DNA from: a virus
Lineage: Duplodnaviria; Caudoviricetes
DNA length: 64,000 bases
IMG/VR virus record: IMGVR_UViG_3300008259_003073
Reading direction: 5' to 3' (one strand)
Shown: positions 10,277-60,300 of the stretch, piece by piece
Position numbering within the stretch: position 1 is the first letter of the stretch
Layout: each line of letters begins with the position of its first letter
Position numbers and translations under genes: made by a program
Notes under the pieces: generated by a model
Database searches by the model: none
The model's input: only the letters and a program-made list of their open reading frames with translations
Told to the model about the DNA's origin: nothing

Positions 10277-11890
10277 TTAAAGAGTTTCTAAACCATCTAC
10301 GAGAATCTTACCGTAGAATTCTGGTCTTACGATTTTCTTTGCGTAACGAGTCATAACACCTCTACGTGGAGTAAAGTTGGTTGGGTCGTACACTAAAGGA
10401 GTCATAATCAATGGTACATAAGGTGCGTAAACTGCTCCAGTCTCGAAGAAGTTAGAACCTTTGAAACCTAACAAGATTACGTTTTCAGTCATGTAAGGGT
10501 TTTTGTAAACATCGTATCTGTTAGAGATTGAACCGATGTTAGTTACACCTGCTGCGAAAGTCAACGCATCTTTACCAGGGTTTGCAGAGAATCCGTTCAT
10601 TGATTCCAAAATTGTAGCTACGTTTGGAGAAACAACCAAGAAGTTTGCTCCACCACGCATAGTCAATTGGTGAATTTTGTTAGATACTTTCTGCAATTTG
10701 ATACCCAAAGTTTGGAACCAAGTATTCTTTTGGTAAGCCGAAGCAGCTGCTGCGTTAGAATCAATAGCGAATCCAGCACCAGTCCACTCATATCCTACTT
10801 TAGATGACCAGTATTCAGTTGTGAATGCGTTCTGCTGCAACATCTCAAGGATTTCCAAATCAATCTCCAAAGAGATGTATTCAGATAACATTTGAGTCAA
10901 TTCAGCTTCTGCATCTACAGAGTGATATGCGTTCAAATCTTGCGCCAATTCAGGAGTCCAAATTGCCTTCAACTTACGTGTTTTAGCAACGATAGGCTCT
11001 GATTTCAATTCCAATTCAATTTCTGGAATTGCCAAATCTGTTCCTCTATCTTCGAAATCACCACGAGAAATATCAGTAGGTTGTACGTGATATGCCAATG
11101 ATACACCAACAGTTGTAAGGTTAGATAAACCAGTTACAGATGCAACGAATTCAACATTTGAACCATTTTTAGTTGTGTATTGTGGATAGTATCCTGTTAC
11201 AGAACCTGTTAATAAAGTTGGTTCGAAAGCTCTAACACCATTGAAATCAGCATCAGCTGGTAAAGCTACAACGATTTTCTTCAATGTGTTACCTGCGAAT
11301 GATGCAGAAACTGAACCAGAAGATAAATCATAATCGATATCAGCTAAAGATGCAGATGCAAAAGTAGCAGTGATAGCAGCAGTAGCGTTGTTGATTGTAT
11401 AACCAAAACGTCCTGCACCATAAAGACCTCCTTCTGGAGATTGAGTTGAACCTAGTTTGTTACCAGCTGGAGATAAAGAATCTTTACCGAAAGTACCACT
11501 GTTACCAAACAAAGATGAACCTGTGAAATTTGGATTACCCGCTGGGTTAGTACCATATTTGAAGTCCATGTAGAAAATAAGACCTGATGGTAAGTTCATT
11601 GGTTGAACTGAAACGAATTCTTTCGCTGCAATAGAACCGAAGATACGTCTTACCAAAGGAAGAGCCACACCAGCCCACTCTTCAGAACCTGAAGAAGTAC
11701 CAGTACGAGTTGCCTCATCCAATAATTGTTTAGCCTGGTTTTCTAACATTACTGCCATACCATGCTTTGTAGTTTCAGAACCTACTCCTTCAAGTAGACC
11801 TGTTCTTTCCCATTTGCCTTTCAAACCTCTGGTTTGCTCAAGCATCACGCTCTGTGGGTTCGCGCCGCTCATTAATTTTTTAATGTTCAT
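10277..11890 (-). CDS. gp23: Major capsid protein, T4 gp23-like
   Basis: VQPMNLPSGLIFYMDFKY, AKTRKLKAIWTPELAQDLNAYHSVDAEAELT and YAPYVPL...DPTNFTPRRGVMTRY motifs. Confidence 0.97.
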   Translation of the reverse strand: MNIKKLMSGANPQSVMLEQTRGLKGKWERTGLLEGVGSETTKHGMAVMLENQAKQLLDEATRTGTSSGSEEWAGVALPLVRRIFGSIAAKEFVSVQPMNLPSGLIFYMDFKYGTNPAGNPNFTGSSLFGNSGTFGKDSLSPAGNKLGSTQSPEGGLYGAGRFGYTINNATAAITATFASASLADIDYDLSSGSVSASFAGNTLKKIVVALPADADFNGVRAFEPTLLTGSVTGYYPQYTTKNGSNVEFVASVTGLSNLTTVGVSLAYHVQPTDISRGDFEDRGTDLAIPEIELELKSEPIVAKTRKLKAIWTPELAQDLNAYHSVDAEAELTQMLSEYISLEIDLEILEMLQQNAFTTEYWSSKVGYEWTGAGFAIDSNAAAASAYQKNTWFQTLGIKLQKVSNKIHQLTMRGGANFLVVSPNVATILESMNGFSANPGKDALTFAAGVTNIGSISNRYDVYKNPYMTENVILLGFKGSNFFETGAVYAPYVPLIMTPLVYDPTNFTPRRGVMTRYAKKIVRPEFYGKILVDGLETL

Positions 11891-15276: not shown

Positions 15277-15867
15277 TTAATTTAATTCTATTATAATTTC
15301 TCTCATTAAATCTTGTGATTTACACCACTTACCACATTCTTCTGCCATTTTAGCCCACTGCTTTGATTCATTCATTGGTGCCATAAATGCTCCATGTGTG
15401 GATGGATTAGAAACGAAATCCCAACCAACCAATTCGAAATCTTCCTGAACCATTACGGTCCCATCTTTTAATTCCTTTACTGAACCTAATCCTCGTGATG
15501 AAATACCTAAACGGATATTATTTTTTAATAATTCTTTTAAGATATTACCAGATGGAGTTGAAAGAATTTCTACTACACCACATACATCATCACCTTCCCA
15601 ATAAATTTCTCTAATGTTGTGGGATACATTTTTTAAGTTGATAACAGGAGAATCTGGATGGTCCAACTCACCTAGCGCTCTACGTTCTTTAATAAGTTGT
15701 TTGTATTTTGCACATTCTCTTTCTAAAATTTCTCTAGGATAGCGTCTACCATTTTGATTAGCAGCACCTGCTCTTTGTAAGATGCCCTTTACCAAATATG
15801 TTCCATTTTCTTCTTGTTGAAGTTTTGCTTCAAACAAATGGGTTTCTATCAATAATCCTTTATTCAT
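15277..15867 (-). CDS. gp21: Prohead protease, T4 gp21-like
   Basis: NQNGRRYP, ALGELDHP, VSH, LGISSRGLGS and DFVSNPS motifs. Confidence 0.95.
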   Translation of the reverse strand: MNKGLLIETHLFEAKLQQEENGTYLVKGILQRAGAANQNGRRYPREILERECAKYKQLIKERRALGELDHPDSPVINLKNVSHNIREIYWEGDDVCGVVEILSTPSGNILKELLKNNIRLGISSRGLGSVKELKDGTVMVQEDFELVGWDFVSNPSTHGAFMAPMNESKQWAKMAEECGKWCKSQDLMREIIIELN

Positions 15868-17003: not shown

Positions 17004-18677
17004 TTATTTATCCGTAGTAGATTTACCAAAAACTCTTTGTATTTCCGGTCCTTTTGAAGAATCTACTTTTGATTTTATAATTTTAAGTGCATCTTTTTTT
17101 AATTCACTAGGATGAGAATTAAACCATTCTGAAATATCTTCATTACTCTTTATTGCTCTTCTTCTTTGTCCACCATCATCGATATAATTTGTGTAAAAAT
17201 CATACCATCTTAATACGGAATCCGCTAATTCTTTTCCAGTTTTGGCAGGTGTGTTTTGACTTGCTTCGTTTACTGATTCGTATTTAATCATATCTGGATT
17301 AAACTTTTCAAAATTCTTTCTTGCCCATTTTACGGCAGCTTCATAAGAATTGAATTTAATCCTATCCTGTTTGAACCCCTTTGCCTTATTTAAGAAATCA
17401 ATATAAACTTTTTCTTCGTTTATAGATTCTTGAATTTTATTTCTTTTCATCCATTCTTCTAAATTACGAATTGCTGAATCAAATACTCTACTTCTATCAT
17501 GGTCCATTCCAAAGTTTTTGAAGTATTCTTTCATCATCTGATACGGTGAATCTAATTGCTCACCGTTTCTTTTCATATCTTTGATATTCATAGCAACTTG
17601 ATAAGCTGCCATCTTACCACCAAAGAAAATAGCTTCGGATGTAATATCATTCCAAAATCTATCCACCAATGAAGATAATGGTTTTCCTTTTGAGCGATAC
17701 CCAAATTTTTCGTTACCTAATGATTCTACAAAGTAAATCAATCTTTCTGCGTTGGTTACTTTATCTAAAAACTTTTCCTTTACCATTCCTTGAAGAACTT
17801 TTTCACCCTGTGATGAAATTGGAATTTTGTTGATTCCTAATTCTTTCATTTTAGAATCAACATCACGAGGCATCATAAATTCGTTTATTGATTTACCTTC
17901 ACTAATTACTTTATTACTTGGAAATGATACTGATGGTTGGTTTCCAAATGTTTTATCAACTTTAGCATTGATTCCAAATTGTGATTTTAACATTTTTACA
18001 ACACCACTGCCAAACTTTATATCAGTAAGTTTAAGATAAATGTAATTTCTATTAGGTGCATTCTTAATTTCACCACTTACAAACTTTGAACCTATTAATT
18101 TAATAATATCATCTACTACATCTGCTGCAAGGTATCCTTTAAGTTCGGATTCTTTTACTACGGAATATCCAGTTAAATCGGCTTGCCTCTTTCCCTTTTT
18201 CTCTTCACTATCTTTACCACTAAATGCGAATGGAGTATTGTATCCTTCAACACCACCAGTAGTATTCATCTCATCTACTTTTAATTCGGCATCTTTGTAC
18301 ATATCACTAACTTTGTCATTCAATTCTGCTGCCAATTTTTTCTTTTGTGCAGTTAGTGTTTTTAGTTGTTGTATGTGTTGTTTTTCGGCAGGAGTACCTT
18401 TGGATTTTTTATATGCTTCTAAACTCTTTTCCATAGAATCTAAAACTTTTGCATAATCCGTTTGAATGGCCTTAACAGAACGTAATTCAGCCAACACCAT
18501 TTCTTTTATTTTATCAGGCAATCCTTTGTGAGATGTTGATGCAAAATCTTTAGCATCTTTATCACTCATTGAATCTGCTGCTTTTTCAACTTCTGGGGAT
18601 GGGTTTTCCATATCGCCCTTTTGAGCGGCGTGTACCATACCCATAAATTTTTGTTGTGCTTTAGATACTGCTGGCAT
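17004..18677 (-). CDS. Modular putative internal head polyprotein
   Basis: N-terminal MPAVSKAQQKFMGMVHA motif; unrelated-looking modules separated by IKE, VDE, VKE, ISE, INE, ES(I/V)NE. Confidence 0.6.
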   Translation of the reverse strand: MPAVSKAQQKFMGMVHAAQKGDMENPSPEVEKAADSMSDKDAKDFASTSHKGLPDKIKEMVLAELRSVKAIQTDYAKVLDSMEKSLEAYKKSKGTPAEKQHIQQLKTLTAQKKKLAAELNDKVSDMYKDAELKVDEMNTTGGVEGYNTPFAFSGKDSEEKKGKRQADLTGYSVVKESELKGYLAADVVDDIIKLIGSKFVSGEIKNAPNRNYIYLKLTDIKFGSGVVKMLKSQFGINAKVDKTFGNQPSVSFPSNKVISEGKSINEFMMPRDVDSKMKELGINKIPISSQGEKVLQGMVKEKFLDKVTNAERLIYFVESLGNEKFGYRSKGKPLSSLVDRFWNDITSEAIFFGGKMAAYQVAMNIKDMKRNGEQLDSPYQMMKEYFKNFGMDHDRSRVFDSAIRNLEEWMKRNKIQESINEEKVYIDFLNKAKGFKQDRIKFNSYEAAVKWARKNFEKFNPDMIKYESVNEASQNTPAKTGKELADSVLRWYDFYTNYIDDGGQRRRAIKSNEDISEWFNSHPSELKKDALKIIKSKVDSSKGPEIQRVFGKSTTDK

Positions 18678-19836: not shown

Positions 19837-21579
19837 TTACTTTTTGGTTAAATCTTCTGTCAAAATAGTTTTTTTATTACCATCCATATCCTTAAAAACT
19901 TCAAAATATGAACTCTTTCTCGGTTTGTATGGAACAGAACCTTCTTTTGCTTTAAGAGTTTTTATTCCTAATGGGTCTCTACCTTCAGGATGGTCATCAT
20001 GCCCATATCTAACAGGGTCTTTTGGTCTACCAACCTGTCCATCTAATTCAAGTTTTAACTTATTCAACTCCTCTTCAACATTAGTTGGTCCACCTTCAGT
20101 TCCAGTTTCTTTTGCTGGGTCTACACCTTGTGTTTCAATTGAAGTTAAACGGAACATTTGTTTAGTATCATCTAATACCTGCAATGTTAATTCATCCTGC
20201 TCATCTTTTGCCATCTTCATTACGGATTCATACATCCATTCTTTGGAGAACATCTTTGTTTGTTGCATTTGTTGAATTAGGGCTACTTTTGAAGTGTATA
20301 GTTCAACCTGCTCCTGCTCATAAATTCTAGATGGAACTGTTAATTCCAATGTAAAGTCTGTTAAACGGTCATCGTTAATACCTTGTGCGTATAAATGAAC
20401 GATTGCAATTTTAGTTAATTCGGAAATCAATACTCTCTGAACTCTTTCAATTGTTTTGGCAAAACGAATATCCATTGATGCCAATGTTGCTTTACCATTA
20501 GTATCTTCCTCATAACCCAAATATGCTTTTGGAATTTTAAGTGCAGCCATCAACTTCCCTTTTAAGTAATTGATGTCATCAATCATATTGTACTCTAAAC
20601 CTTTTAGGGTATCAATTGAAGTTCCATTATCACTACCTCGAACTGGCATATAATAATCTTCAATAAGATTCATCATATTGTACTTTAAGTTGTACTCACC
20701 CGTTCTTTCATCAACAAATGGAACTTTCTTTGATGCGTTGATGATTTTTTGCATGTAGTTATCCACTTCGTTTGGTGGGATATTACCAACATCCACTTTA
20801 AAAATTCTCTTTTCAGGAGCTCTCATTACTCTGTGGATTAACATTGCATCTTCCATCAACATTAATTGTTTCCAAACTCTTCTAGCTCCTTCAACCATAG
20901 ATTTTCCATAAGGTAAGAAGTTTGAATCTGAATTTAAACGGAAGTGAGCAATCTCATAGTTTTCAAATTCCTTTTTAGTAGTTTGACCTACTGCCATATA
21001 TGGGTTTTGATATGGGGCATATACGAATTTAACTCTTTGTGGATTTTCAGGATCAAATCCCTCTACTCTACTCATTTCGTATGATGATAATGGCATTACG
21101 TTTATAATTCCCAATTCATCTGCAATTTCTAATTCTAAAAAGAAATCACCATATTTTACCAAGTTTCGTGTCCAAGGCCATAAGTTGAACTCAATGTTAA
21201 GAATATCGTAAAATAAGTTTTCTAATATTTGTTTGATGTTATCATCATCGTGATGAATTTTTAAAATACTACCATGTTCGTTTTTAGCGGTACATTCATC
21301 TGCATATACATCCAATGCGGATGATAAAATGGGGTCCATATCCATTGAATCGTAATCTCTAAACAAATCGATACGAACTTGTTGGTATGCCATTGCAGAT
21401 TCCACCCCACCTACACCGTAGTTACTTACTTTGAGTTTCATATAACGGTCTACAAGGTTAGTTGTCATATTCTGATACTCATCAGTATCGACTATTTTAA
21501 CTCCTTTTTCCGTTTTTCTTACTATGGTATTTGTTGAAAATAATTTCTGTAACCTACCGAATAATGTTTTATCTGCCAT
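19837..21579 (-). CDS. gp20: Portal protein, T4 gp20-like
   Basis: LMEDAMLIHRVMRAPEKRIFKVDVGNIP, EDYYMPVRG...TSIDTLKG and DDINYLKGKLMAALKIPKAYL motifs. Confidence 0.95.
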   Translation of the reverse strand: MADKTLFGRLQKLFSTNTIVRKTEKGVKIVDTDEYQNMTTNLVDRYMKLKVSNYGVGGVESAMAYQQVRIDLFRDYDSMDMDPILSSALDVYADECTAKNEHGSILKIHHDDDNIKQILENLFYDILNIEFNLWPWTRNLVKYGDFFLELEIADELGIINVMPLSSYEMSRVEGFDPENPQRVKFVYAPYQNPYMAVGQTTKKEFENYEIAHFRLNSDSNFLPYGKSMVEGARRVWKQLMLMEDAMLIHRVMRAPEKRIFKVDVGNIPPNEVDNYMQKIINASKKVPFVDERTGEYNLKYNMMNLIEDYYMPVRGSDNGTSIDTLKGLEYNMIDDINYLKGKLMAALKIPKAYLGYEEDTNGKATLASMDIRFAKTIERVQRVLISELTKIAIVHLYAQGINDDRLTDFTLELTVPSRIYEQEQVELYTSKVALIQQMQQTKMFSKEWMYESVMKMAKDEQDELTLQVLDDTKQMFRLTSIETQGVDPAKETGTEGGPTNVEEELNKLKLELDGQVGRPKDPVRYGHDDHPEGRDPLGIKTLKAKEGSVPYKPRKSSYFEVFKDMDGNKKTILTEDLTKK

Positions 21580-22174: not shown

Positions 22175-23782
22175 TTAACGAAGTAACCAAGTTAGGTTTT
22201 CTACATCACCTTTACCTACTTCCATTTCGTATGGATTCTTACCAGACCAACCAGTGGAGTACACACCACTAAACTGATTTATTTGAGTTGAGTTCAACAT
22301 ACTCTTTGTTAAATCAATACCTTCTTGTCTCAAACGAAGTGCAGTGTTACGAACCCACAACCCAATTGCCAATGCCATTACCAAGTCATCATTGTACCCC
22401 TTCATTGCTTCTGCTCTACCACCATGCCATATAAAGGTAAACATCTCATCTATTAAACGATTTGAACGTATTAGAATATCTTTATCACTCATATATGTAT
22501 CCAATGCTGAAATGATAAGAGGACGAGTTTTAGATGTTGTGGAGAATCCGGCAACCATTTGTTTTTCATCTCTGTAAAACTTATTACTCATTTGTTTTTC
22601 AACATCAATATATTTCAAATCGTTACTCATATAAAACAGATTTGGATACCCTCTATCTATGATTTGTTGAATACATGCCCAACCTACGTTTGAATTTTCT
22701 ACAACTAATAAAGCGTTGTTATATTCAGTTGCTAATGAAGTTAAAAAATTACCAAAATCTTTTGTTTCAATTTTACCTCTGTATTCTGCTACTTGACAAC
22801 AATCTTCTATATCAATTACCTGTGCAGTAGAATAATCGGCTCCATCTCCTCTCGCAACGTCAGCACATACCATGTACTGCTTGTTATAGTTTGGGTACTC
22901 CCATATCCATAAGTTATTATCAAACCCTCTCTTCTCAACTGGGTCCATCACATAGGTATCTTTGTACCAAGTTAATAATGCGGGGTCAATTACGGTATCA
23001 CCTGAACCAATAAAGTCACAATCACATTCTTGTGCTGCACCTTTAACCCCCAAAATACGAGTCTGTTCATCTCTCCAAGCCTGGTTTCTTTCAGGGTGTA
23101 CTGTCCAATGTAGGTTAATACAATTGAAACCATTTGCACCACTTTCACCTTCTACCCACATTTTATGGAACCAGTTACCAACACCGTTTGGTGTAGATAA
23201 TACTATTGCGTTACCACCTGTTGATAGGGTTGATTGTGCCGATAACCAAATTTCATCGATATCTCTAATGAATGCCGCTTCATCCACTACTAAAAGTGAT
23301 AGAGCTTCCGAACGACCTGCATCTGGTGAAGATGCAATTGCCTTTACCTGTGAACCATTCTTTAATTTAAGTGATAGTTTGTTATCTTCAGCCGCTGCAG
23401 TTCCACCATCTCTCAACCATACTGGCAATAAATCGTGCATAACCCTAACCTTTTCTACAAGGTTTTTGGCTACCGTTACTTTTGTTGCAATAACCAATGC
23501 GTTAAAGTCCTGATTGAATATCATTTTCCAAAGAATAAATCCCGCAGAAAGTGTTGATAAACCTAACTGACGAGATTTTAGAATGATATTAAAACGATGG
23601 TCTTTAAAATCAGTTAAACACTCCTCTTGAAAAGGATAAAGGTGAAAGGGAATTTTCCCTCTCACCGGATGTTGAATAACACAATACTTCTTCATAAAGT
23701 AAATGGGGTCAGCCGCACATTTACGATATTCTTCAGAAATTATTTCTTTTAAAGTTTTTTTTGGTTGTCCTTGAACTCCCAT
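22175..23782 (-). CDS. gp17: Terminase large subunit, T4 gp17-like
   Basis: LYPFQ adenine motif; Walker A ILKSRQLGLST; Walker B LLVVDEAAF; STPNG; nuclease ADVARGDGADYS and DDLVMALAI. No intein evident. Confidence 0.97.
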   Translation of the reverse strand: MGVQGQPKKTLKEIISEEYRKCAADPIYFMKKYCVIQHPVRGKIPFHLYPFQEECLTDFKDHRFNIILKSRQLGLSTLSAGFILWKMIFNQDFNALVIATKVTVAKNLVEKVRVMHDLLPVWLRDGGTAAAEDNKLSLKLKNGSQVKAIASSPDAGRSEALSLLVVDEAAFIRDIDEIWLSAQSTLSTGGNAIVLSTPNGVGNWFHKMWVEGESGANGFNCINLHWTVHPERNQAWRDEQTRILGVKGAAQECDCDFIGSGDTVIDPALLTWYKDTYVMDPVEKRGFDNNLWIWEYPNYNKQYMVCADVARGDGADYSTAQVIDIEDCCQVAEYRGKIETKDFGNFLTSLATEYNNALLVVENSNVGWACIQQIIDRGYPNLFYMSNDLKYIDVEKQMSNKFYRDEKQMVAGFSTTSKTRPLIISALDTYMSDKDILIRSNRLIDEMFTFIWHGGRAEAMKGYNDDLVMALAIGLWVRNTALRLRQEGIDLTKSMLNSTQINQFSGVYSTGWSGKNPYEMEVGKGDVENLTWLLR

Positions 23783-25151: not shown

Positions 25152-28100
25152 TTATTCGTAAAATATACCTAATATCTGATTTAGTGGTGCAAATGTGCCT
25201 GTAAGTTTGTATGTATTACCCTTATACACAAACACTATACCTTCATTAGGAACTATCTTACCCTTACCACCAATACTAGCTAATCTACTTAATTCCATTT
25301 TTAATTTAGCTATTTTAGATACATCACCACTACCTCTTACTTTTTCCGCAGTAGATTCCAATCTGTTTTTCATATCGGCAACTGCTGCATTTGGATTTGC
25401 AGTTAAAACTGAACTCATAAACGAAAGAACATCGGCACCAACTCCCAAAAATATCTCTTCAAATTGTCTAACATTTTCTTTTTGTTGCTTTACTACATTT
25501 ACTTTATCATTATCCATTGCCCACTTTTGAGCTTCCTTATCTACAATTGCATTTAAACGGAATGATTTATCACCAAACGCCCATCTCTTTATTAATGCAT
25601 CTCTTTCAAATTTCTCTAATTTAACTTTTGATTTATCTATAAAATTAGACCACCATGCTTGATGATATTCGGAAACACCATCGTTGTTAGATAATTGAAA
25701 TTCAGATTGTAATTTTTGTAATTTACTTAAATACTTACCTTGCTTTGAACTCAAATTTTCATTTTTAGGAAGTTGTGTAACAGGAGGTCCTTGTATAGTA
25801 TATTTAGATTGAACATCCGCATTCACTTGCTTAATCATCCCTGCCAATTTAGTTGCTGCAGATTGGTCAGCAGAAACTGCTTTACCACTTTCATCATAAC
25901 AAGTTGTGTTATGAAATACCAATAAAGCCTGTCCGTAAGGAATAACATTTACAGAAGTTGGCCATATTACTTCCAAATTCATAAAACAATGTCCTTCATT
26001 AAATATTTTCTTTCGTTGTGGTTCCGAAAGAGATTGGATTGCCGCTGATAAATCTTTCATTGCAAAATTATATGCATCGGTTAATCCACCTCTACCACTA
26101 AATTTAGATGCAACATCTTCAATTCCCATTGCGTTTGCTCCACCATTTGCCAAATGTCCTTTGTTTCTTGCTGCAATCAATCTACCATTCTTCCAGCTAA
26201 TTGCTAATGCCTGTCCATCGGTTTTTTCTCTTGTCAATTCTAACTCACCAGTCAATGCTCCTGTGATTATATTTTTTAAATCACCAAAAGTTAAATCCAT
26301 ATCATCAAATGGGTGAGACATGTGACCGTATGCACCACCTTCAGTTAAAATCGTTTCATTTGTCTTTTTTTTTAAGTTTCTTTTTTGAAGAACTAATTTA
26401 TTTAATTCTGAAAATAAATCAGCAATATCTTTATCCAATTTTTTTTCATCAGCTGACATTGGGGATTCAATATCTACATTGGAATAAAGTTTTTTCTTTT
26501 TAGCAATTAAAGCATCTACTTTTTTAAGTAAATCATTCTTTGCCGTATCTAAATCTTTTATTATATCTTCCGTTGATGATTCGTTTAGCTTAACCCCCGC
26601 ATAATCTAATCTATATTCATAATACGCCTTTTTAATATCAGCAGGAATCTTTGAATTTTTAGTGAATATTTGGTCTACCATCTTACGAGTATCATTTGAT
26701 GATAGATTCCATTTTAACTTATTTTTATCTAATGTAAAGAAAGTATTTAAAGTAAAATCTATCTTACTCAACATTGGTTTCAAAATTTCATTTTCAAAAA
26801 ATGAATCGTATTCCTTTCGCTGCTCTCTCTCTAAATAATTAAGAGCGAAGTTCCCATCATACAAATACGCTTTTAATGCTTTTCCAACCATCACCAACAC
26901 ATACTTTTTATCGTTAGGACCTAAATACTTTTCATCGGAATTACCAATCACATATGTGTACTGATTACCTACCAAGTCCTTTAATTTTACTTCGTTTAAT
27001 TTACCGGTATCCGTTTTAAAGAATGGACCTCTTCTTACACTTCTAAAATCTAAACTCATTTCGTTTCCAAAAATCTCTTTCGGTGCAAGTACTTTTACTC
27101 TAATAGTTCCATTTTTGTTATCTACACCTATTGTTTCAAAATCAATTTCGGAGTATTTTTTACCTTTAAATCCTAAATTTTTACCAGTAATAAACTTATG
27201 AACTTTACCACTACTAACTGCCTGTGCTTCACTTACAGGTTCATATCCATTATCTTCGGTATCTTTTATATTGGGTTGATGTCCTGGCTGTCTTTTTCTA
27301 TTATCATCAAAATCTACAGTATCTAATTCAGCTGATTGCCCAATATCGTTCTTGTGATTGTTTGTAAAATCTTTTACGGCTTGAGATATAGATTCACCAC
27401 GTGGTATTCTAAATGTTGTTGCCTTCTTACCATTGATTGTAGGCATTCCGTGGTCATCTTTACCAATATCTTTAACGGTAACTCTTTTATTTTTAAACTT
27501 ACCCATTAAAACCTCATCACCCTTATCAACATCTACATTAATATCTTCTTTGACAAAATCAGTTTCAACATATTCTACACTTGGTAAGTTTTTTATAGTA
27601 TATTTTATAGTTCTTTCTTCCGCATCATCATCACCAAATATAGCATCTGCTTTTGGAAAATCGGTTTGAGTGTATCCACCATTCGCATACCAGGATTCAG
27701 GTCTATCGGAATCTAATTTTCTTTTTTTACCTTTTTTAATAAATGAACCATCTGGAACATCTGCGGTATTTGCAGTTCCAACATTACTAACCTCTGTGTA
27801 AATTTGTTTGTTGATTCTACCATATTCTCTCATAAGAATACCTGCTACGGCATGTGCTTGGTTTTCAACTGGCGAACCATCTGCCCCATCTTTAACTTCG
27901 TTTCGTATAAACCCCAACTCATCTTGTTTTCTATGAACCATTTCATGTGCAAGTGTTCTCAATATATCCGCAGTTAATCTACCTTCAGTTGCAACATATA
28001 TTGATTTACTAATCGGGTCATATCCACCCAACGATGTTTTGGCTTCTGCAAATTTTCTACCACCAACTAAAGTTATTTTTGGAGTTTCTTTTAATTTTAA

Positions 28101-30347
28101 TCGTTTAGTTGCAAACTCTACAAAATTTTGAATAGATTGTTGTTTTGTTTCTGAAAGATTTTCTTTCATCAAATCCGAAGCATTAGCCATAGATTGATTT
28201 TTAGTTCCTTCTTTTTTATATCTAGCAATCGTTTGTATTAATTGTTCATCGGATAGTTTATAGTTTTGCATTATTTCTAATGTTTTTTCTATAAAGTTTG
28301 GTACAAATTTTTTCGTATCAAATCCTTCTTCTCCCTTTTTATTTTCAAATATACCAGCTACTCCCAATGCAATACCACCTGCAGAAGCTTGTGCCGCATT
28401 AGCACCTAAAGCTTCAAACGCAGAGTGTTTTATTATGTCTTTAACTATGTAAGACCCCAAATGACCTCCACCAAATTTAGCTGCTATTTTTGCTCCGGCT
28501 GCTTGTGCAATACCACTAGCACTAGCACCTTTTGATGCTGCAGATATGCCACCCATTAAACCACCTGTCGTTGCAATTGAACCCATTATTATTGCGGAAG
28601 TTTTTACAAAATTTCCAAGACCCTTTTTTTGTTTTTGACTTTCATTCCAAGACTTTTCTGCTAATTCCCGTTGTTCTGGAGTTAAATCTTTTCTATATAC
28701 AGGTTCTTTTTTTGTTTTTGGTTTTCCTAATATAGTTTTAGCCTGTATAGGATTACCATTTTCATCTTTAATCGGATGTCCATGCTTATCTTCTTTGTAA
28801 ACAGGAACATCTTTCATTTTAGGTTTTACTTTTCCTTGAAAATCTAGTTTACGAGTTGTTGAATCTGGTTCTGTAAAATCATCCCAATGTTTAGTTTTAC
28901 CTTCTGAATCTTTAACAGCCCCAAATCTTCCAGTAGTTGCCAATGATTTTATAGCACTAGCAGTTCCCACCAGCATTTCTTTGTTATGCTTGAATGTATG
29001 CATAATACCATGCCCTACATACGATGCTGCTTTTTTTAGTATATTCATAGCCCCTTTTCTTTCTTCAGATTGTGGGTTATTTGCTTTATCAATTGATTCG
29101 TTATCTCCTTTTGATAAACCTTTTCTGGCATCAGTTACTTGTTGACTTGTTTCCGCATCTTTCTTTTCTTTATCAGATTTTTCAGCAGACGCTTTTAATT
29201 CAGAACCACTTAATTTTTGAGGTGATGTAGGCGGTGGCGGAGGTGGTGGTGGTGGCGGTTTTGGGACACCTTGTTTTTGTTTCGTTGCATCCACCTTACC
29301 TTGTGCAGTAGCTCCCTTATTTACAGGTTGTCCAGGTTGTGATGGTTTTGGTTGATTTGCAGGTGCATCCGATGGTCCCTGTGCCATTCCTTTTTTCTTA
29401 ACTGCATCAGCTTCAGCAGGAGTTAGGGTTCTGATTTTACCATCTTCAGATTTATGACTCGCAGGTTGTCCTTCTTTACCATAGTATCCACCACCCAAAT
29501 GTTTCAATCCCATTTTTTCGGCTTCGGATTCTTCTTTGAAATATGTTCTGGTAAATTCTTCGAACATTTCTTCCATTGCAACTCTACCAATTATTTCTGC
29601 AATTGGATTATATAATTCGTCCGTTGGATGTTCAATTTGATGTCGAGTAGGATGTGGTTCGGGTCTCATTTCATACGATGGCTTCGTATTATTAGTCTCA
29701 TCTACTGAACCCGTTGGTGCTCCATTAATATATCCTCCTGGAAGATTTAATCCAGTTCCTATACCGCCTGGAAACCCATTTTCATTTAATTTACCTGTTA
29801 TCATACCGAATACCTCTTTATCAAATTTTGGATATGCTTTTAAAAATCCCTTTTTCTTTTCATCATCACTTCCCTTACCTAACCAATTACGAACATCTGT
29901 TCCACTAATTGGGTTTGGTTCGGCGGGAACGGCATATACATATCCAATTTCATCGTATCCGTATCCAGCTTTTTCGTTATATGGTTTAAAGTATTTACCC
30001 GCTAATCTATCTGCATCCTTTTCTCCAACTGCTGCTACATACGCAGTAGTTTTACCATCAAATTGAGATAATATTTCTTTTGGAGCATACGGATTACGAA
30101 CTTGAACTATCTTATCTTCCGGTATTCCAAACATTGTAGTAATTATTTTCACCTTCTCATTAAAATTAAAAGGAGATTTAGGACCTGATGTATCATTGGA
30201 TGTTCCAATATATACATTTGATTTTCCAAATTTTTGAGCAAGCTTTAAATAAGAAACATAATGTCCCTTATGGAATGGTTGAAAACGACCTGAATATACT
30301 ACTATGGTCCTTTTTACTATCGGTTTATCTTTTTCGTTCAAATTCAT
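25152..30347 (-). CDS. 1731-aa multidomain polyprotein: HIGH nucleotidyltransferase, Gly/Ala-rich hydrophobic segment, HExxH zincin, ligase-like nucleotidyltransferase
   Basis: SGRFQPFHKGH plus ISGTDVR; Pro10 linker; LAHEMVH; EKTDG...NLEVI...EGIVF...YKL. Modules are bounded by LNE/LSE/VKE/VSE/LTE. Confidence 0.75.
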   Translation of the reverse strand: MNLNEKDKPIVKRTIVVYSGRFQPFHKGHYVSYLKLAQKFGKSNVYIGTSNDTSGPKSPFNFNEKVKIITTMFGIPEDKIVQVRNPYAPKEILSQFDGKTTAYVAAVGEKDADRLAGKYFKPYNEKAGYGYDEIGYVYAVPAEPNPISGTDVRNWLGKGSDDEKKKGFLKAYPKFDKEVFGMITGKLNENGFPGGIGTGLNLPGGYINGAPTGSVDETNNTKPSYEMRPEPHPTRHQIEHPTDELYNPIAEIIGRVAMEEMFEEFTRTYFKEESEAEKMGLKHLGGGYYGKEGQPASHKSEDGKIRTLTPAEADAVKKKGMAQGPSDAPANQPKPSQPGQPVNKGATAQGKVDATKQKQGVPKPPPPPPPPPPTSPQKLSGSELKASAEKSDKEKKDAETSQQVTDARKGLSKGDNESIDKANNPQSEERKGAMNILKKAASYVGHGIMHTFKHNKEMLVGTASAIKSLATTGRFGAVKDSEGKTKHWDDFTEPDSTTRKLDFQGKVKPKMKDVPVYKEDKHGHPIKDENGNPIQAKTILGKPKTKKEPVYRKDLTPEQRELAEKSWNESQKQKKGLGNFVKTSAIIMGSIATTGGLMGGISAASKGASASGIAQAAGAKIAAKFGGGHLGSYIVKDIIKHSAFEALGANAAQASAGGIALGVAGIFENKKGEEGFDTKKFVPNFIEKTLEIMQNYKLSDEQLIQTIARYKKEGTKNQSMANASDLMKENLSETKQQSIQNFVEFATKRLKLKETPKITLVGGRKFAEAKTSLGGYDPISKSIYVATEGRLTADILRTLAHEMVHRKQDELGFIRNEVKDGADGSPVENQAHAVAGILMREYGRINKQIYTEVSNVGTANTADVPDGSFIKKGKKRKLDSDRPESWYANGGYTQTDFPKADAIFGDDDAEERTIKYTIKNLPSVEYVETDFVKEDINVDVDKGDEVLMGKFKNKRVTVKDIGKDDHGMPTINGKKATTFRIPRGESISQAVKDFTNNHKNDIGQSAELDTVDFDDNRKRQPGHQPNIKDTEDNGYEPVSEAQAVSSGKVHKFITGKNLGFKGKKYSEIDFETIGVDNKNGTIRVKVLAPKEIFGNEMSLDFRSVRRGPFFKTDTGKLNEVKLKDLVGNQYTYVIGNSDEKYLGPNDKKYVLVMVGKALKAYLYDGNFALNYLEREQRKEYDSFFENEILKPMLSKIDFTLNTFFTLDKNKLKWNLSSNDTRKMVDQIFTKNSKIPADIKKAYYEYRLDYAGVKLNESSTEDIIKDLDTAKNDLLKKVDALIAKKKKLYSNVDIESPMSADEKKLDKDIADLFSELNKLVLQKRNLKKKTNETILTEGGAYGHMSHPFDDMDLTFGDLKNIITGALTGELELTREKTDGQALAISWKNGRLIAARNKGHLANGGANAMGIEDVASKFSGRGGLTDAYNFAMKDLSAAIQSLSEPQRKKIFNEGHCFMNLEVIWPTSVNVIPYGQALLVFHNTTCYDESGKAVSADQSAATKLAGMIKQVNADVQSKYTIQGPPVTQLPKNENLSSKQGKYLSKLQKLQSEFQLSNNDGVSEYHQAWWSNFIDKSKVKLEKFERDALIKRWAFGDKSFRLNAIVDKEAQKWAMDNDKVNVVKQQKENVRQFEEIFLGVGADVLSFMSSVLTANPNAAVADMKNRLESTAEKVRGSGDVSKIAKLKMELSRLASIGGKGKIVPNEGIVFVYKGNTYKLTGTFAPLNQILGIFYE

Positions 30348-30350
30348 ACA

Positions 30351-30359
30351 TATAAATAT
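30351..30359 (-). promoter_or_regulatory. ATATTTATA promoter-like motif
   Basis: Exact motif 3 nt before the ATG at 30347. Confidence 0.6.
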
Positions 30360-57392: not shown

Positions 57393-60300
57393 TTACCTAT
57401 TTAATAACTTTTTAATTGATATTATTTCATTTTTTAATTCAACAATTTCACTATTTTGTTCTTTTATTCCCTCAATCAATAAAGCAATTATCTTTTCATA
57501 ATCAACTCCTAAATACCCATCTCCTTTTTCTCTTACAACTTCTGGTAAAACTTCTTGAATTTCTTGTGCTAAAACCCCAACCTCTTGAATATTTTTTGGT
57601 TTGTTAGAAATACCGTTCCAATTAAAAGTATATCCTCCAATTTTTTTAATCTTATCCATTGGGTTTGAAATGGGAATAATATTTTCTTTTAATCTTTTAT
57701 CAGAACTAGATAGTGCGTACATATCACCAGTTGCTCTAATATCACCATTAATAGTTAATACCCCACTTGATATTGAGATTTCACCAACTGATAAATTTGT
57801 TATTGCACCATTTGTTGCACTTAATGTTGAGAATGTACTCAAACCTGTAAAGTTTGATGACCCTTTTACTGTCAGAAAATTGGTAGAAGATAAACTGGTA
57901 TCAACTTTGAATTGGTTTGACCCATACAAAGATTGTAAACCTGCTTGGCAAATTTCAACACTTCTTGGAGCACTACCTACCACTGCGTTAACACCACTAA
58001 AGTTTGGTGTTTTTAATGTTATACTTTCACCACTAACTAAATAATTTACACCAATTTGATGTTTTATTCTAACATCATATGTTCCGCCTGAAGGGATTAT
58101 TATGGATGCTCCACCAGTAGAAGTTATACTTCTTTCATAATTTGGATTATTATAAAAAACATATCCAGATGCAATTAACGCTTCCCCTACACCTACAACT
58201 TCCAAACTTATCCAATGATAGGTCTGAACGTAAGTAGCAGTAGATATTTGCATTAAGTACGAAGTACCAAGAGAGTTTGAAATCATTGCCGATATTTCCG
58301 CATCTGTCATAGAAACCTCTGTTCCAGCTGCAACAACACCCGTTGATACGGTATTTGAATTAAAAGTAGTACTCGCTTCAGCTTGTAAGTTTTGTCCAAA
58401 TACAGGACCGTTTCTTGTTGTTGAACTTGTGCCACTAAAATCGGATAAAGCGGATGTAGAACTTGCTATTCTAAATGAAGTATCATCCGTCATAATTACT
58501 GCGTTTCTAGACCCATCTTTTATGAAGAATCCTAAATCGGATGAATTTATTTCAATTGTACCAGTACTAGTTTTACTTATCTTATCATTAGAAATTGACC
58601 AACCTCCAATTGTAGCACCTAATGCGGATAATTCACTTACTGTTATTTTATTAGCGGTTACCGCGCCAGCTGCTATTGTGGTTGCGGTTACTGCGTCAGC
58701 TGCAATTTTACCTGCAATAATTGCACCAGCTGCTATTGTGGTTGCAGTTACTGCGTCAGCTGCAATTTTACCTGCAACTATTGCATTTGCAACTATTTTA
58801 CCAGAAGTAACTGCATCTGCTGCTATTTTACCTTCCGTTACTGCATTAGCCGCTAATTCTGCATTTGTTACGGTACTTAAAGTTGCCAATCCACCTAATC
58901 CAGTAACTTGTCCAGTTGATACGGTGTTTTGAGTTGCTAATGTTCCAAGACCAGTAACTTGACCAGTTGTAACACTATTTGCAGTTGCTAATGTTCCCAA
59001 TCCAGTTACTACAGTATTTGGAACTGTACTACCAACACTTAAATTACCAACTATGTTTAGATTTGTTCCATCCCAAGTTAAAGAATTTGTTGCAGATTTT
59101 AAAGAAAGTTTGGAAACTCCACTATCTTGACCTAAAAATATACCAGTATTATTAAACCCTTGAGAGGATTGTCCAATCGAAATATAAGGATTTGTAGAAC
59201 CACCCGCTATAGTTATATTTGCCGAACTTAATGTGGTTGAAGTCGTACCAATGTTTATTGTATTTTGAACAAATGAATCTTCAAATATACCTATTTTAGC
59301 TGCAACAAAGAAATCTTGTGCACCCAATGATATCCAACCCGTTTGTGATGATTGATGTGGTGCACCATCCGCGACGTTTCCTGTAGCTGAAAGATGTTGT
59401 CTAGTGGTTGCGTAGTAAGTATTATACGGTGGTGAGCCAGTTGAACTCCATAGAACAGTATCTCTTCTACCTGTCCCAGTTGTTAACCCATCTGAAAATT
59501 GGTATGTTCTACCACTTGTCCAAACTCCAGTATGAACTACACCAGGTCCAGTTTGGCCATTGGCACCATTTGCACCATTTGCTCCCGTTGCTCCCGTTGC
59601 TCCCGTTGCTCCGGTATTACCGATTCCACTTACTCCAACTTCAAAATCAATAGTTCTGCCAGTAAATGCAGTACCTTCAGAGTTTCTGTAAGAAATAGTT
59701 ATTACACCACTTGTACCACTAATACTAGTTGGAGTGTTTGGGGTGATTGTACCATTGCCATTATTTGTAGCGTTTGTGACACCAGTTATATTAAAAGTAT
59801 TTGCTCCACTTGTATTGTATGTATAATTTGACCCACCTTCGTTTACTACAACGGTTACATTACTAGGTGTCCCTATACCAACTAACGAACCACTAACTAC
59901 GGTTTGTGATTGTGGATTTGCAGAAATGTTTACAACGGGTGCAGAACTTCTTACTCTAGAAATCGTAGCAGTTACATTCTTTGTACCTGAAACACCTTCA
60001 CTATCGGTGAAATTGACAGGAATTGTTACTGTTCCACTATCGGATGTCATCGAAGATGCATTACTTGAAAACACTATTGTATTAGAAGAAACACTACCCG
60101 CTAATCCATTTGTATAAGTAGGTGTTCCTAATGATGTAAATCTACTTATACCACCTTCTAATGCAGTTACAGTTAGGGTTTGTGGTGTAGCTGAACCACT
60201 ACCACGAGAATTTGATTGGATTGATTGTGCAGTTGGTGAAACTGAAACTTCCACATTTGGTACTCCTCTCTTACTTTTTGAATAGGTTACCACCTTTGTT

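Follow-up and report, generated by a model that had tools for sequence, protein, structure and literature searches.

A gene that lies among the head genes of a 202-kb uncultured T4-like phage may well encode a polyprotein of enzymes that is packaged as head cargo and cut by the prohead protease, a reading to which we give an even chance. It was found in a window of 64,000 nt, the whole stretch of DNA analysed here (IMG/VR record IMGVR_UViG_3300008259_003073; Duplodnaviria; Caudoviricetes; one strand, 5' to 3'). The first-pass annotation had described a reading frame at 25152-30347 beginning MNLNE; this frame was recovered, with every motif listed for it in its reported place, and contains about a dozen modules in one chain. 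Per-domain searches also bore out the domain content then claimed, namely a HIGH-type nucleotidyltransferase, an HExxH peptidase fold and a ligase-like domain. The features of the gene, from its 5' end, are as follows:

25152..30347, minus strand: complete ORF (P0001), 1731 aa and a stop codon, single and ATG-started, N-terminus MNLNE
30333..30347, minus strand: leader MNLNE at the N-terminus, with hydrophobic-x-Glu as its last three residues; candidate propeptide (cf. T4 Alt, cut at ITE-6)
29781..30332, minus strand: predicted HIGH-superfamily (cytidylyltransferase-like, NMNAT-like) nucleotidyltransferase, aa 6-189, from Pfam, PHROG and PDB matches and motifs; ends KLNE189
29061..29780, minus strand: linker and low-complexity region, aa 190-429, Lys-, Pro- and Gln-rich, with a GFPGGIG...GYINGAP motif, AEKMGLKHLGGGYYG and Pro10
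28641..29060, minus strand: module, aa 430-569, common to 5 family representatives
28344..28640, minus strand: Gly/Ala-rich, moderately hydrophobic helical stretch, about aa 570-668, glycine-zipper-like, in 11 of 149 representatives
27792..28148, minus strand: predicted minimal gluzincin-type metallopeptidase module (zincin), aa ~734-852, between LSE733 and YTE852
27546..27791, minus strand: small module, aa 853-934, in 24 representatives; ends VKE934
27393..27545, minus strand: small beta-rich module of ~50 aa, aa 935-985, in 49 of 149 representatives
26991..27392, minus strand: two small modules, aa 986-1040 and aa 1041-1119, ending at VSE1040 and LNE1119
26580..26990, minus strand: module, aa 1120-1256, with neither a relative among the 149 representatives nor a family match
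26340..26579, minus strand: helical, coiled-coil-like module, aa 1257-1336; ends LTE1336
25155..26339, minus strand: predicted RNA-ligase-like covalent nucleotidyltransferase domain, aa 1337-1731 (395 aa), starting GGAYGHMSHPFDD, from alignment, model and fold searches

Family-model and motif comparison indicates that the N-terminal domain is an NMNAT-like nucleotidyltransferase. It carries GRFQPFHKGH at aa 20-29 of the polyprotein, and both FHKGH (aa 25-29; HxGH at aa 26-29) and SGTDVR (aa 148-153; SGTxxR) are at least 90% conserved in relatives. The (H/T)xGH motif, the ISxTxxR-type motif and a match to PF01467 (CTP_transf_like; 24.3 bits, above the cut-off of 21) place it in the HIGH superfamily, and it also matches phrog_395 and the PDB NMNAT 2qjt (E 7.7e-5). 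It does not reach the NMN adenylyltransferase (NadM/archaeal) equivalog level, the best NCBIfam score being ~31 bits vs cut-offs of 127-449, and the NCBIfam NMNAT-model matches span only its first ~60 residues.

The metallopeptidase, whose HEMVH motif (aa 801-805) was correctly assigned to window positions 27933-27947, is a predicted minimal gluzincin with an intact catalytic signature. Residues H801, E802, H805 and E828 are invariant in a 29-sequence alignment, the last glutamate lying 23 residues past the second histidine, and the HExxH motif with its downstream third ligand sits on a modelled zincin fold, as is typical of gluzincins. The model (pLDDT 88-98) has a secondary-structure order that fits this fold (helix, three-stranded sheet, active-site helix, Glu helix), and the fold search reports Wss1 and AQ_1354 (Z 9.1, 104-105 residues aligned) and SPRTN (Z 8.5), with minigluzincins and IrrE also listed. 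No curated peptidase family scores above cut-off (best Pfam DUF6647, 17.8 bits vs 24.1), a profile search against PDB sequences returned no match, and the sole lead of an Atlas search was IrrE/M78-like clusters. The module occurs in 17 of the 149 family representatives; stand-alone zincins of 125 aa start MKYIKE and finish without a terminal Glu.

The C-terminal domain is predicted to be an RNA-ligase-like covalent nucleotidyltransferase with all ligase motifs present, their numbers being assigned by order and context, without a solved structure. Motif I is KTDG (aa 1375-1378, window 26214-26225). An alignment of 61 diverse domains shows its K1375, D and G to be invariant, as are G1703 of motif IV and K1714 of motif V, while E1459 of motif III and E1702 of motif IV are each at least 90% conserved. 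The KxDG motif and motifs III, IV and V thus stand in the usual order, on what the model (pLDDT 90) presents as a nucleotidyltransferase fold, with a large helical insert of ~170 residues between motifs IIIa and IV. VIA-align analysis reports REL1 (Z 8.5), Naegleria Rnl (8.3), Trl1 (8.2) and T4 Rnl1 and Rnl2 (7.8), with DNA ligases and capping enzymes at 5-7, and the top Foldseek match is T4 Rnl1 (E 7e-3). These fold scores are moderate, yet the list of RNA ligases is consistent. Residues 1300-1731 have no Pfam, NCBIfam or PHROG match at all, to the named RNA ligase families or otherwise, and the PF09414 (RNA_ligase) profile finds no match in the genome. In one relative, the orthologue on L002/L003, a split intein is inserted exactly at K|TDG: the break at REK|TDGQ leaves a piece of 1448 aa that finishes with the intein N-half and one of 391 aa that begins with the C-half, and a 244-aa ORF lies between these two pieces.

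The modules between these enzymes are less readily assigned. When ten segments were scanned one by one with Pfam, NCBIfam and PHROG, the middle modules and the ligase domain all stayed below cut-off, an Atlas search with aa 1041-1257 gave no usable match, and P-loop, HD, HAD and metallophosphatase signatures, looked for in the 1731-aa protein, were not found. The linker holds AEKMGLKHLGGGYYG at aa 276-290, common to just 3 proteins of the set, and the reported Pro10 at aa 364-373; residues 290-560 form a long basic, low-complexity region. The Gly/Ala-rich stretch was rightly located (~28350-28610, aa ~578-666), but the hydrophobicity attributed to it is just moderate, its Kyte-Doolittle 19-residue maximum of 1.37 lying under the usual transmembrane threshold. 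With this hydropathy and a low-confidence structure model, the proposal that it inserts into a membrane is weakly supported. Other family members too have the coiled-coil-like module ahead of the ligase domain, and the ~50-aa beta-rich module, third commonest in the family, varies in position.

Megablast with the gene as query returned no match among 50,697 phage records, while tblastn matched the end domains only in Microcystis phage Mel-JY01 and two huge uncultured phages, and the zincin in cyanophage hypothetical proteins. The ligase-like domain defines a very large, uncatalogued family of uncultured phages, with 1863 clusters at 50% identity and without a Pfam or PHROG model. Among its 149 representatives, the comparison of domain content called for by the first annotation shows that the ligase-like unit is constant and the middle modules exchanged and reordered: the ligase-like domain is nearly always C-terminal and usually accompanied by the nucleotidyltransferase (together in about 100 of 149), but domain order is not conserved, the ligase standing ahead of the nucleotidyltransferase in some members. 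The two are directly fused in proteins of 600-640 aa, as in Mel-JY01, and stand-alone ligase-domain proteins begin exactly M-GGAYGH. Among 41 diverse members, fusions to a P-loop kinase domain (AAA_33/Zeta_toxin Pfam; 6), a CCA-adding-type PolyA_pol head (3) and an HD domain (1) were found. T4 polynucleotide kinase is a P-loop kinase, and the kinase domains of these relatives may be PNK, a putative assignment of our own.

The evidence for proteolytic processing comes from the module junctions. Boundaries had been proposed at LNE 187, (I)FE(N) 666-669, LSE 731, YTE 850, VKE 932, VSE 1038, LNE 1117, LNE 1254 and LTE 1334; when module limits were set independently, by homology among the 149 representatives, all except 666 fell within ~5 residues of a limit. 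In the 1731-aa protein, [LI]xE is not enriched (12 vs 14.4 expected), and the motif list therefore cannot be judged from this single sequence; the broader [LIVMFY]xE occurs 42 times vs 32 expected (p~0.017). What carries the junction signal is the placement of the sites and their conservation among relatives, not their number in one protein. Scored as [LIVMFY]xE within 14 residues of a module limit (background 22.6%), the motif accompanies 80/94 nucleotidyltransferase ends, 117/142 ligase starts, 11/16 zincin starts, 16/16 zincin ends, and 25/33 starts and 32/45 ends of the ~50-aa module. Family-wide, 69-100% of junctions have hydrophobic-x-Glu vs a background of ~22%, the binomial p-values being inflated by the relatedness of the representatives, whereas the Asp version gives 0-31% vs 25%, without enrichment. 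Glu stands directly before GGAYGHM in 77/96, and Leu or Ile at position -3 in 91/96; in about 19% of members the Glu ahead of GG is replaced by Met or Cys. Comparison across the family thus indicates a conserved, Glu-specific junction motif of the kind expected for prohead-core cargo, and one that matches the T4 gp21 rule: in the T4 capsid-targeting sequence (CTS), residues 8 and 10 govern processing and Asp at position 10 blocks it (PMC9026906), and T4 Alt is cleaved at ITE-6 and LTE-619 (PMC5694885). The motif is dispensable for folding, as judged from the starts of stand-alone ligases and zincins and from the pLDDT <50 of the residues preceding GG in the model.

The surroundings of the gene are those of a T4-type head module, in which the polyprotein gene lies two genes upstream of the terminase large subunit (TerL), followed by the portal, prohead-core genes, an S77 protease and gp23:

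30351..30358, minus strand (gene strand): intergenic element (A)TATTTATA, 3 nt before the ATG, a candidate late-promoter-like site
22175..23782, minus strand: terminase large subunit, TerL (context)
19837..21579, minus strand: T4-type portal protein (context)
15277..15867, minus strand: T4 gp21-type prohead protease, Pfam PF03420 (Peptidase_S77; E 1.7e-29), which presumably does the processing
10277..11890, minus strand: gp23-type major capsid protein (context)

The S77 protease, a gp21-family enzyme of the same genome, is thus encoded 9 kb downstream of the polyprotein gene, and the pro-region of the gp23-type protein (~60 N-terminal residues) itself contains MLE, LLE, MLE and LDE sites. In 5 of the 7 gene neighbourhoods inspected, a polyprotein-family gene lies 1-5 genes ahead of the terminase, and the position upstream of TerL is kept in Mel-JY01, L002/L003, L006 (whose homologue is 41% identical with a different domain order) and the P0185 contig. 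Two minimal fusions instead adjoin DNA-metabolism genes (gp32/UvsX/ThyX, or NUDIX and a polymerase exonuclease) and retain LLxE before GG; the motif may therefore serve the enzyme and not a protease. The promoter motif described 3 nt ahead of the start is a real intergenic element, but it reads TATTTATA and not the T4 late TATAAATA, a sequence absent from that place on the gene strand. Of 17 copies of the upstream element, 9 lie in the intergenic 7.4% of the window, ahead of head and tail-fibre genes, and an intergenic ATATTTATA element is common to the polyprotein gene, head genes and a tail-fibre gene.

Family N-termini such as MNLNE, MNLLNE and MNELSKFLVE can be likened to T4 capsid-targeting sequences or to the six-residue Alt propeptide. 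The leader here has 5 residues vs the 10 of the T4 CTS (key positions 4, 7, 8 and 10), relatives have 10-residue leaders of the MNELSKFLVE type, and some long family members, e.g., those starting MTKTVVIYS, are leaderless. A hydrophobic-x-Glu within residues 2-12 is found in 10 of 20 head-module ORFs vs 20% of all ORFs of the genome. The shortness of the leader and this chance frequency count against the cargo reading, and so do the leaderless long members, the Met or Cys before GG and the distance of the link to S-CREM2.

That link is to a distant homologue associated with virions. The 'cytidylyltransferase' gp154 of cyanophage S-CREM2 was found by mass spectrometry in CsCl-purified virions, by just 3 peptides, and the authors mention possible co-purification (PMC10665884). 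It aligns with the nucleotidyltransferase domain (BLASTP 8e-6; hhalign E 2e-5), shares a GRxxPxHKGH...SPFxF-like region, belongs to a T4-like phage and has a T4-like 10-residue, CTS-like leader, MKNFSSFLTE. In contrast, gp154 is a 286-aa stand-alone protein without the ligase-like domain, only about 30% identical over 65-75 residues, and its gene lies near that of the late sigma factor and not upstream of the terminase. In the literature searched, no mention of Mel-JY01 or of 'cytitidyltransferase', the spelling used for the cyanophage protein, was found.

As a prediction, the packaged, protease-cut reading is well supported by comparison. The polyprotein would be made late alongside the head genes and would enter the prohead core via its short N-terminal leader or other contacts; the phage's own S77 protease would then cut after the junction glutamates, freeing a nucleotidyltransferase of ~184 aa, a zincin of ~119 aa, the small modules and a ligase-like enzyme of 395 aa with the N-terminus GGAYGH... 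More speculatively, the pieces could remain in the filled head and go into the host with the DNA, where the ligase-like and nucleotidyltransferase pair might repair nucleic-acid ends, most likely those of RNA, or serve in counter-defence, and the zincin might act on host proteins or aid processing. An RNA-repair role is favoured from the fusions in relatives and from RNA ligases being the best structural matches. The case is weaker here than in relatives because no end-healing enzyme, PNK-type kinase, CCA-adding enzyme, KptA or tRNA was recognisable in the genome, where the sole match of the repair-enzyme searches was one weak 16-bit P-loop match. Beyond this phage, and more tentatively, on odds that we put somewhat below even, the family may constitute a modular capsid-delivery platform in a large uncultured T4-like clade. 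Glu-bounded, interchangeable cassettes would precede a constant ligase-like unit in one precursor, the virion would inject a lineage-specific repair or counter-defence kit (nucleotidyltransferase, ligase, kinase, CCA-adding enzyme, zincin), and a new RNA-ligase family, possibly pre-adenylylated, would act in the first seconds of infection.

The product could instead be a cytoplasmic, unpackaged multi-domain repair enzyme whose nucleotidyltransferase and ligase-like domains work intact on RNA or DNA ends, possibly sealing nicks before or during DNA packaging, with hydrophobic-x-Glu merely marking helix ends and linkers. The frequent co-occurrence and direct fusion of the two domains fit such an enzyme, as do the two minimal fusions among DNA-metabolism genes, one of them leaderless. 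Moreover, no other ATP- or NAD-dependent DNA ligase and no other RNA ligase was found in the genome, so that this may be its only sealing enzyme. Zachary and Black are said to have reported in 1981 that DNA encapsidation in T4 requires T4 DNA ligase, and nick sealing around packaging would explain the position of the gene by the terminase. We nevertheless consider this unlikely: the junction enrichment is specific to Glu and absent for Asp, spans unrelated modules in differing orders and is gone where a module ends a stand-alone protein, the unconserved domain order is easier to reconcile with separable units than with a single integrated enzyme, and the distant nucleotidyltransferase homologue is virion-associated.

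Two further readings are much less probable. Self-processing, in which the HExxH zincin would cut its own chain before or after delivery without the prohead protease, as in a 'polyvalent protein', has a slim chance: the zincin fold and its HExxH...E site are intact, and MPTase domains, the hub of published polyvalent proteins, are proposed autoprocessors (PMC5512222), but the zincin occurs in just 17/149 representatives vs the Glu motif at ~69-100% of junctions, the motif fits the S77/gp21 rule with an S77 protease encoded nearby, and a stand-alone 125-aa zincin with a MKYIKE leader is expected of cargo rather than of a processing enzyme. Least probable is a structural internal-head or ejection-channel protein, with enzyme-like domains as mere scaffolds, that would organise the DNA or form an envelope conduit via its Gly/Ala helices. 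The head-module position, the basic low-complexity region with glycine-zipper-like helices, and a large size such as that of other phages' ejection proteins would suit it; against it, all three enzyme modules keep their catalytic residues unchanged even in distant relatives, an intein interrupts the ligase active-site motif of a relative, and the Gly/Ala module, present in just 11/149, is under the transmembrane threshold.

Returning to packaged, protease-cut cargo, the absence of a described precedent, as first claimed, holds for the architecture but not for the concept, which has been published for T4 Alt and the internal proteins, for phiKZ/SPN3US and for the polyvalent proteins of Iyer et al. 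2017. T4 Alt is an ADP-ribosyltransferase, and Alt and IPI-III have a capsid-targeting sequence, are cleaved by gp21 and are ejected with the DNA. The gene resembles these in its T4-type head module, S77 (gp21-family) protease, short hydrophobic-x-Glu leader, presumed enzyme cargo and P1 Glu without Asp. However, the T4 cargo proteins are single-function with terminal propeptides only, whereas about ten modules with internal sites would form a true polyprotein here; the modules are unrelated to Alt or the internal proteins, and the leader is half as long as the CTS. In phiKZ/SPN3US, many proteins inside the head, enzymes such as virion RNA polymerase subunits among them, are likewise cut at x-x-Glu by a gp21-related protease and ejected, but the protease is S80, the motif is S/A/G-x-E, and each protein has its own gene and a pro-region, without exchangeable module strings; their ejection and inner-body proteins have no sequence kinship with the polyprotein.

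The polyvalent proteins (Iyer, Burroughs, Anand, de Souza and Aravind 2017, PMC5512222) are also giant multi-domain phage proteins that join unrelated enzymes with a minimal, MPTase-like zincin, are encoded with head genes and are proposed to be delivered with the DNA; the same combination of many unrelated domains with an MPTase-like module, in a head-gene context, is found here in one polypeptide. Family searches of the polyprotein and 41 relatives detected none of the polyvalent hub domains looked for (MuF, ArdC-N, ART) and no SNF2, methylase or similar domain of that network, and processing here seems to occur by trans cleavage by the prohead protease at the Glu motif, as opposed to by an MPTase. 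In PMC5512222, 'RNA ligase' appears only where the 2H domains of polyvalent proteins are said never to associate with RNA ligases, and a term search of it did not find NMNAT. The ligase-like domain is closer in fold to T4 Rnl1, Rnl2, REL1, Naegleria Rnl and Trl1 (Z 7.6-8.5, 185-207 residues aligned; motifs I, III, IV and V), and the kinase, CCA-adding-type and HD fusions of relatives recall RNA-repair systems. It differs from the RNA ligases in lacking sequence-level membership and any of the Rnl1-5 C-terminal domains, and in having the ~170-residue helical insert and a conserved N-terminal GGAYGHMxHPFD element.

If the packaged reading is true, T4-like phages load whole enzyme kits as protease-cut polyproteins, with cassettes swapped between lineages, and not only small internal proteins; a very large uncatalogued RNA-ligase-like family paired with an NMNAT-like enzyme is defined; the junction rule (hydrophobic-x-Glu, not Asp) offers an easy way of predicting, from sequence, the capsid cargo of metagenomic phage genomes; and the system is a possible natural template for foreign-protein packaging. 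As a minor observation, the orthologue on L002/L003 resembles the 'fractured genes' that Dassa et al. reportedly described in 2009, consisting of split inteins and a free-standing endonuclease gene; the likeness concerns that orthologue only, the gene of the window being uninterrupted.

Comparison with relatives supports the reading of the 1731-residue product as a cargo precursor of the prohead, putatively cut by the S77 protease. It is encoded by a single, uninterrupted ORF (25152-30347, minus strand) with an ATG start and the N-terminus MNLNE, in a window of ~30% GC in which nearly all genes lie on the minus strand and which is part of a virus record of 201,940 bp with a rating of complete. 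Every motif from the first-pass annotation was found at its stated position, as follows (residues of the polyprotein, minus strand):

aa 20-29, HIGH motif
aa 276-290, AEKMGLKHLGGGYYG
aa 364-373, Pro10
aa ~578-666, Gly/Ala-rich stretch
aa 801-805 (window 27933-27947), HEMVH
aa 1375-1378, KTDG

Residues 6-189 form a HIGH-superfamily nucleotidyltransferase, with a Pfam CTP_transf_like hit above cut-off and a match to phrog_395. At least 90% of relatives retain the HxGH and SGTxxR motifs, and the closest solved relatives of the enzyme are NMN adenylyltransferases, although it scores below every NMNAT equivalog threshold. The zincin module (residues ~734-852) has an HExxH motif and, 23 residues beyond its second His, a Glu, all invariant in 29 homologues. 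The AlphaFold model is confident in this part (pLDDT 88-98), and the structural search returns only zincins as top matches, namely Wss1 and AQ_1354 (Z 9.1) and SPRTN (8.5), with minigluzincins, IrrE and the lethal factor catalytic domain also among them. Stand-alone zincin proteins of 125 residues also exist, such as gp338 of Synechococcus phage B3. Family searches report no match for residues 190-733, outside the Gly/Ala stretch, nor for residues 853-1336. The Gly/Ala stretch itself had been proposed as a membrane-inserting segment, a weak case given that its hydropathy reaches only 1.37 and that its fold is modelled with low confidence.

The C-terminal ligase-like domain (residues 1337-1731) is modelled with a pLDDT of 90. 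Its structural matches are led by RNA ligases (REL1, Naegleria Rnl, Trl1, T4 Rnl1 and Rnl2; Z 7.6-8.5), followed by DNA ligases and capping enzymes (Z 5-7), and an alignment of 61 homologues shows K-x-D-G, the motif III Glu, EG and the motif V Lys to be invariant or almost invariant. In an orthologue from a close relative of ~105 kb, a split intein separates the motif I Lys from the Thr (…REK|C… and …HN|TDGQ…). Inteins typically reside in essential catalytic motifs, and this position therefore supports the prediction that the domain is an active enzyme. The gene concerned (L002:4875-11176, with the same coordinates in L003) appears as a fractured gene split at REK|TDGQ, a 244-residue DUF7487 ORF lying between the two halves; the terminase of this contig likewise carries an intein. 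In the 202-kb genome of the window, no other ATP- or NAD-dependent DNA ligase and no other RNA ligase is recognisable. Having neither tRNA genes nor a further recognisable ligase is unusual for a T4-like phage of this size.

An exhaustive search gathers 1863 clusters of the ligase-like domain at 50% identity, 583 of them with E<1e-30. The domain returns no match to any Pfam, PHROG or NCBIfam family; a PHROG is lacking because so few phage records carry it, Microcystis phage Mel-JY01 being the only isolated phage, besides two huge uncultured ones. It is nearly always C-terminal, in proteins of 400-1930 residues. Among 149 representatives, ~100 also contain the nucleotidyltransferase, 49 a ~50-residue β module, 24 the module of residues 853-934, 17 the zincin and 11 the Gly/Ala module, in variable order, the ligase preceding the nucleotidyltransferase in some. 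Pfam analysis of 41 diverse members adds P-loop kinase domains (AAA_33/Zeta_toxin hits; 6/41), CCA-adding-type PolyA_pol heads (3/41), an HD domain (1/41), ROS/MucR fingers (5/41) and DUF5661 (8/41). T4 polynucleotide kinase is a P-loop kinase, and the kinase domains of the relatives are presumably of PNK type. The kinase, CCA-adding-type and HD fusions point to a possible service of the ligase unit in RNA end repair.

The module limits derived independently from homology coincide with the boundary sites listed in the first-pass annotation. The frequency of hydrophobic-x-Glu in the polyprotein alone is not notable. The junctions were then assessed across all representatives, anchoring on conserved interior residues of each module; as the representatives are related to each other, p-values attached to the following counts are overstated.

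Occurrence of [LIVMFY]xE in the 14 residues just outside each module
Nucleotidyltransferase end, 80/94
Ligase start, 117/142
Zincin start, 11/16
Zincin end, 16/16
50-residue module start, 25/33
50-residue module end, 32/45
Random 14-residue windows, 22.6%

The motif does not sit at a fixed offset, and the windows are almost all different in sequence. When Asp is required instead of Glu, junctions score 0-31% against a background of 25%. Increases for Gln, Asn, Ser and Thr are small or patchy at most, and Lys rises moderately at some junctions; no substitute comes near the Glu signal. The residue that immediately precedes the invariant ligase-domain GG is Glu in 77/96 cases, Met in 11 and Cys in 7; Leu or Ile occupies position -3 in 91/96. 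Met (LLLM|GG, for example in P0204, P0205 and P0210) and Cys (LLQC|GG, for example in P0142, P0165 and P0185) together account for about a fifth of members. A need for the motif in folding is argued against by the stand-alone proteins, since ligases begin M-GGAYGH and zincins begin MKYIKE and end …IFQK without Glu, as well as by the disorder modelled for the residues preceding the ligase GG. The zincin is an unlikely processing enzyme, because the majority of family members are devoid of it. The Glu-specific pattern of the family follows the published T4 gp21 rule. From T4 Alt, six residues are removed at ITE-6 and a C-terminal segment at LTE-619 (PMC5694885), and in the T4 capsid-targeting sequence (CTS) positions 4 and 7 serve targeting and positions 8 and 10 govern processing, which Asp at position 10 blocks (PMC9026906).

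Members with an N-terminal nucleotidyltransferase start either with MNLNE, MNLLNE or MNFINE followed by (K/V)DKP, or with a 10-residue MNELSKFLVE-type leader that matches three of the four key CTS positions (Phe 7, hydrophobic 8, Glu 10). In this genome, hydrophobic-x-Glu occurs within residues 2-12 of 10/20 head-module ORFs, against 20% genome-wide. A distant homologue of the nucleotidyltransferase domain, the gp154 "cytidylyltransferase" of Synechococcus phage S-CREM2 (L012:6609-7469), is one of a family that occurs in 559 phage records. Its leader, MKNFSSFLTE, matches the key CTS positions: residues 4 and 7 are aromatic, residue 8 is hydrophobic and residue 10 is Glu. PMC10665884 reports gp154 by mass spectrometry in CsCl-purified virions and states that such proteins are often detected in cyanophage virions, with a caution about co-purification; a term search of that paper found no mention of the CTS likeness. 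This detection is the only experimental link, and a distant one, to packaging of the polyprotein.

Downstream of the polyprotein gene and on the same strand are two unknown genes, the large terminase, a T4-type portal, a block of small prohead-core-like genes, the Peptidase_S77 (T4 gp21-type) prohead protease and a gp23-type major capsid protein; upstream lies a long cluster of sugar-modifying enzymes. The family gene is also found just upstream of the terminase in Mel-JY01, in the relatives L002/L003 and L006, and on the P0185 contig, where it is directly preceded by genes for a CCA-adding-type nucleotidyltransferase carrying an HD domain and for a homing-endonuclease-like protein. Two minimal nucleotidyltransferase-ligase fusions are instead located in DNA-metabolism neighbourhoods. 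The promoter motif previously noted before MNLNE is a real signal: on the gene strand, an element reading (A)TATTTATA stands 3 nt ahead of the ATG. It differs from the T4 late consensus TATAAATA and is the reverse of the core of that consensus. Nine of its 17 copies are intergenic, intergenic DNA making up 7.4% of the window, and these lie 3-35 nt before head genes, tail-fibre-type genes and the polyprotein gene:

3037, 9045, 10214, 16988, 19811, 22159, 30351, 55533 and 62650 (plus-strand coordinates), minus strand, intergenic copies of (A)TATTTATA

The element is likely a late-promoter-like signal of this phage lineage, and its sharing makes co-regulation of the polyprotein with structural genes plausible. 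It also precedes a second giant ORF (57393-62633, minus strand; 1746 residues), which ends in a Peptidase_S74 intramolecular chaperone domain and is therefore assigned as a tail fibre or spike.

In the best-supported mechanism, the precursor would be made together with the head genes and incorporated into the prohead core, where the S77 protease would cut it after the junction glutamates, freeing the nucleotidyltransferase, the zincin, several small domains and a 395-residue ligase-like enzyme. The pieces may then be ejected with the DNA, as in the analogous case of T4 Alt and internal proteins. Once delivered, they might act in RNA repair or counter-defence, roles to which only the fusions in relatives point; end-healing enzymes, a CCA-adding enzyme, KptA and tRNAs are not recognisable in this genome. 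Head cargo as such is already known from T4 CTS cargo, the phiKZ/SPN3US ejection proteins and polyvalent proteins (PMC5512222). Novelty relative to these systems lies in a multi-cassette precursor that has Glu sites internally, in a ligase-like unit that stays constant, and in how large the uncatalogued family is. Lastly, a head-module protein with an N-terminal DUF3008 (17004-18677, minus strand) comprises 557 residues and its L002 equivalent just 255, suggesting that gain and loss of cargo modules extends to other genes of the head module.
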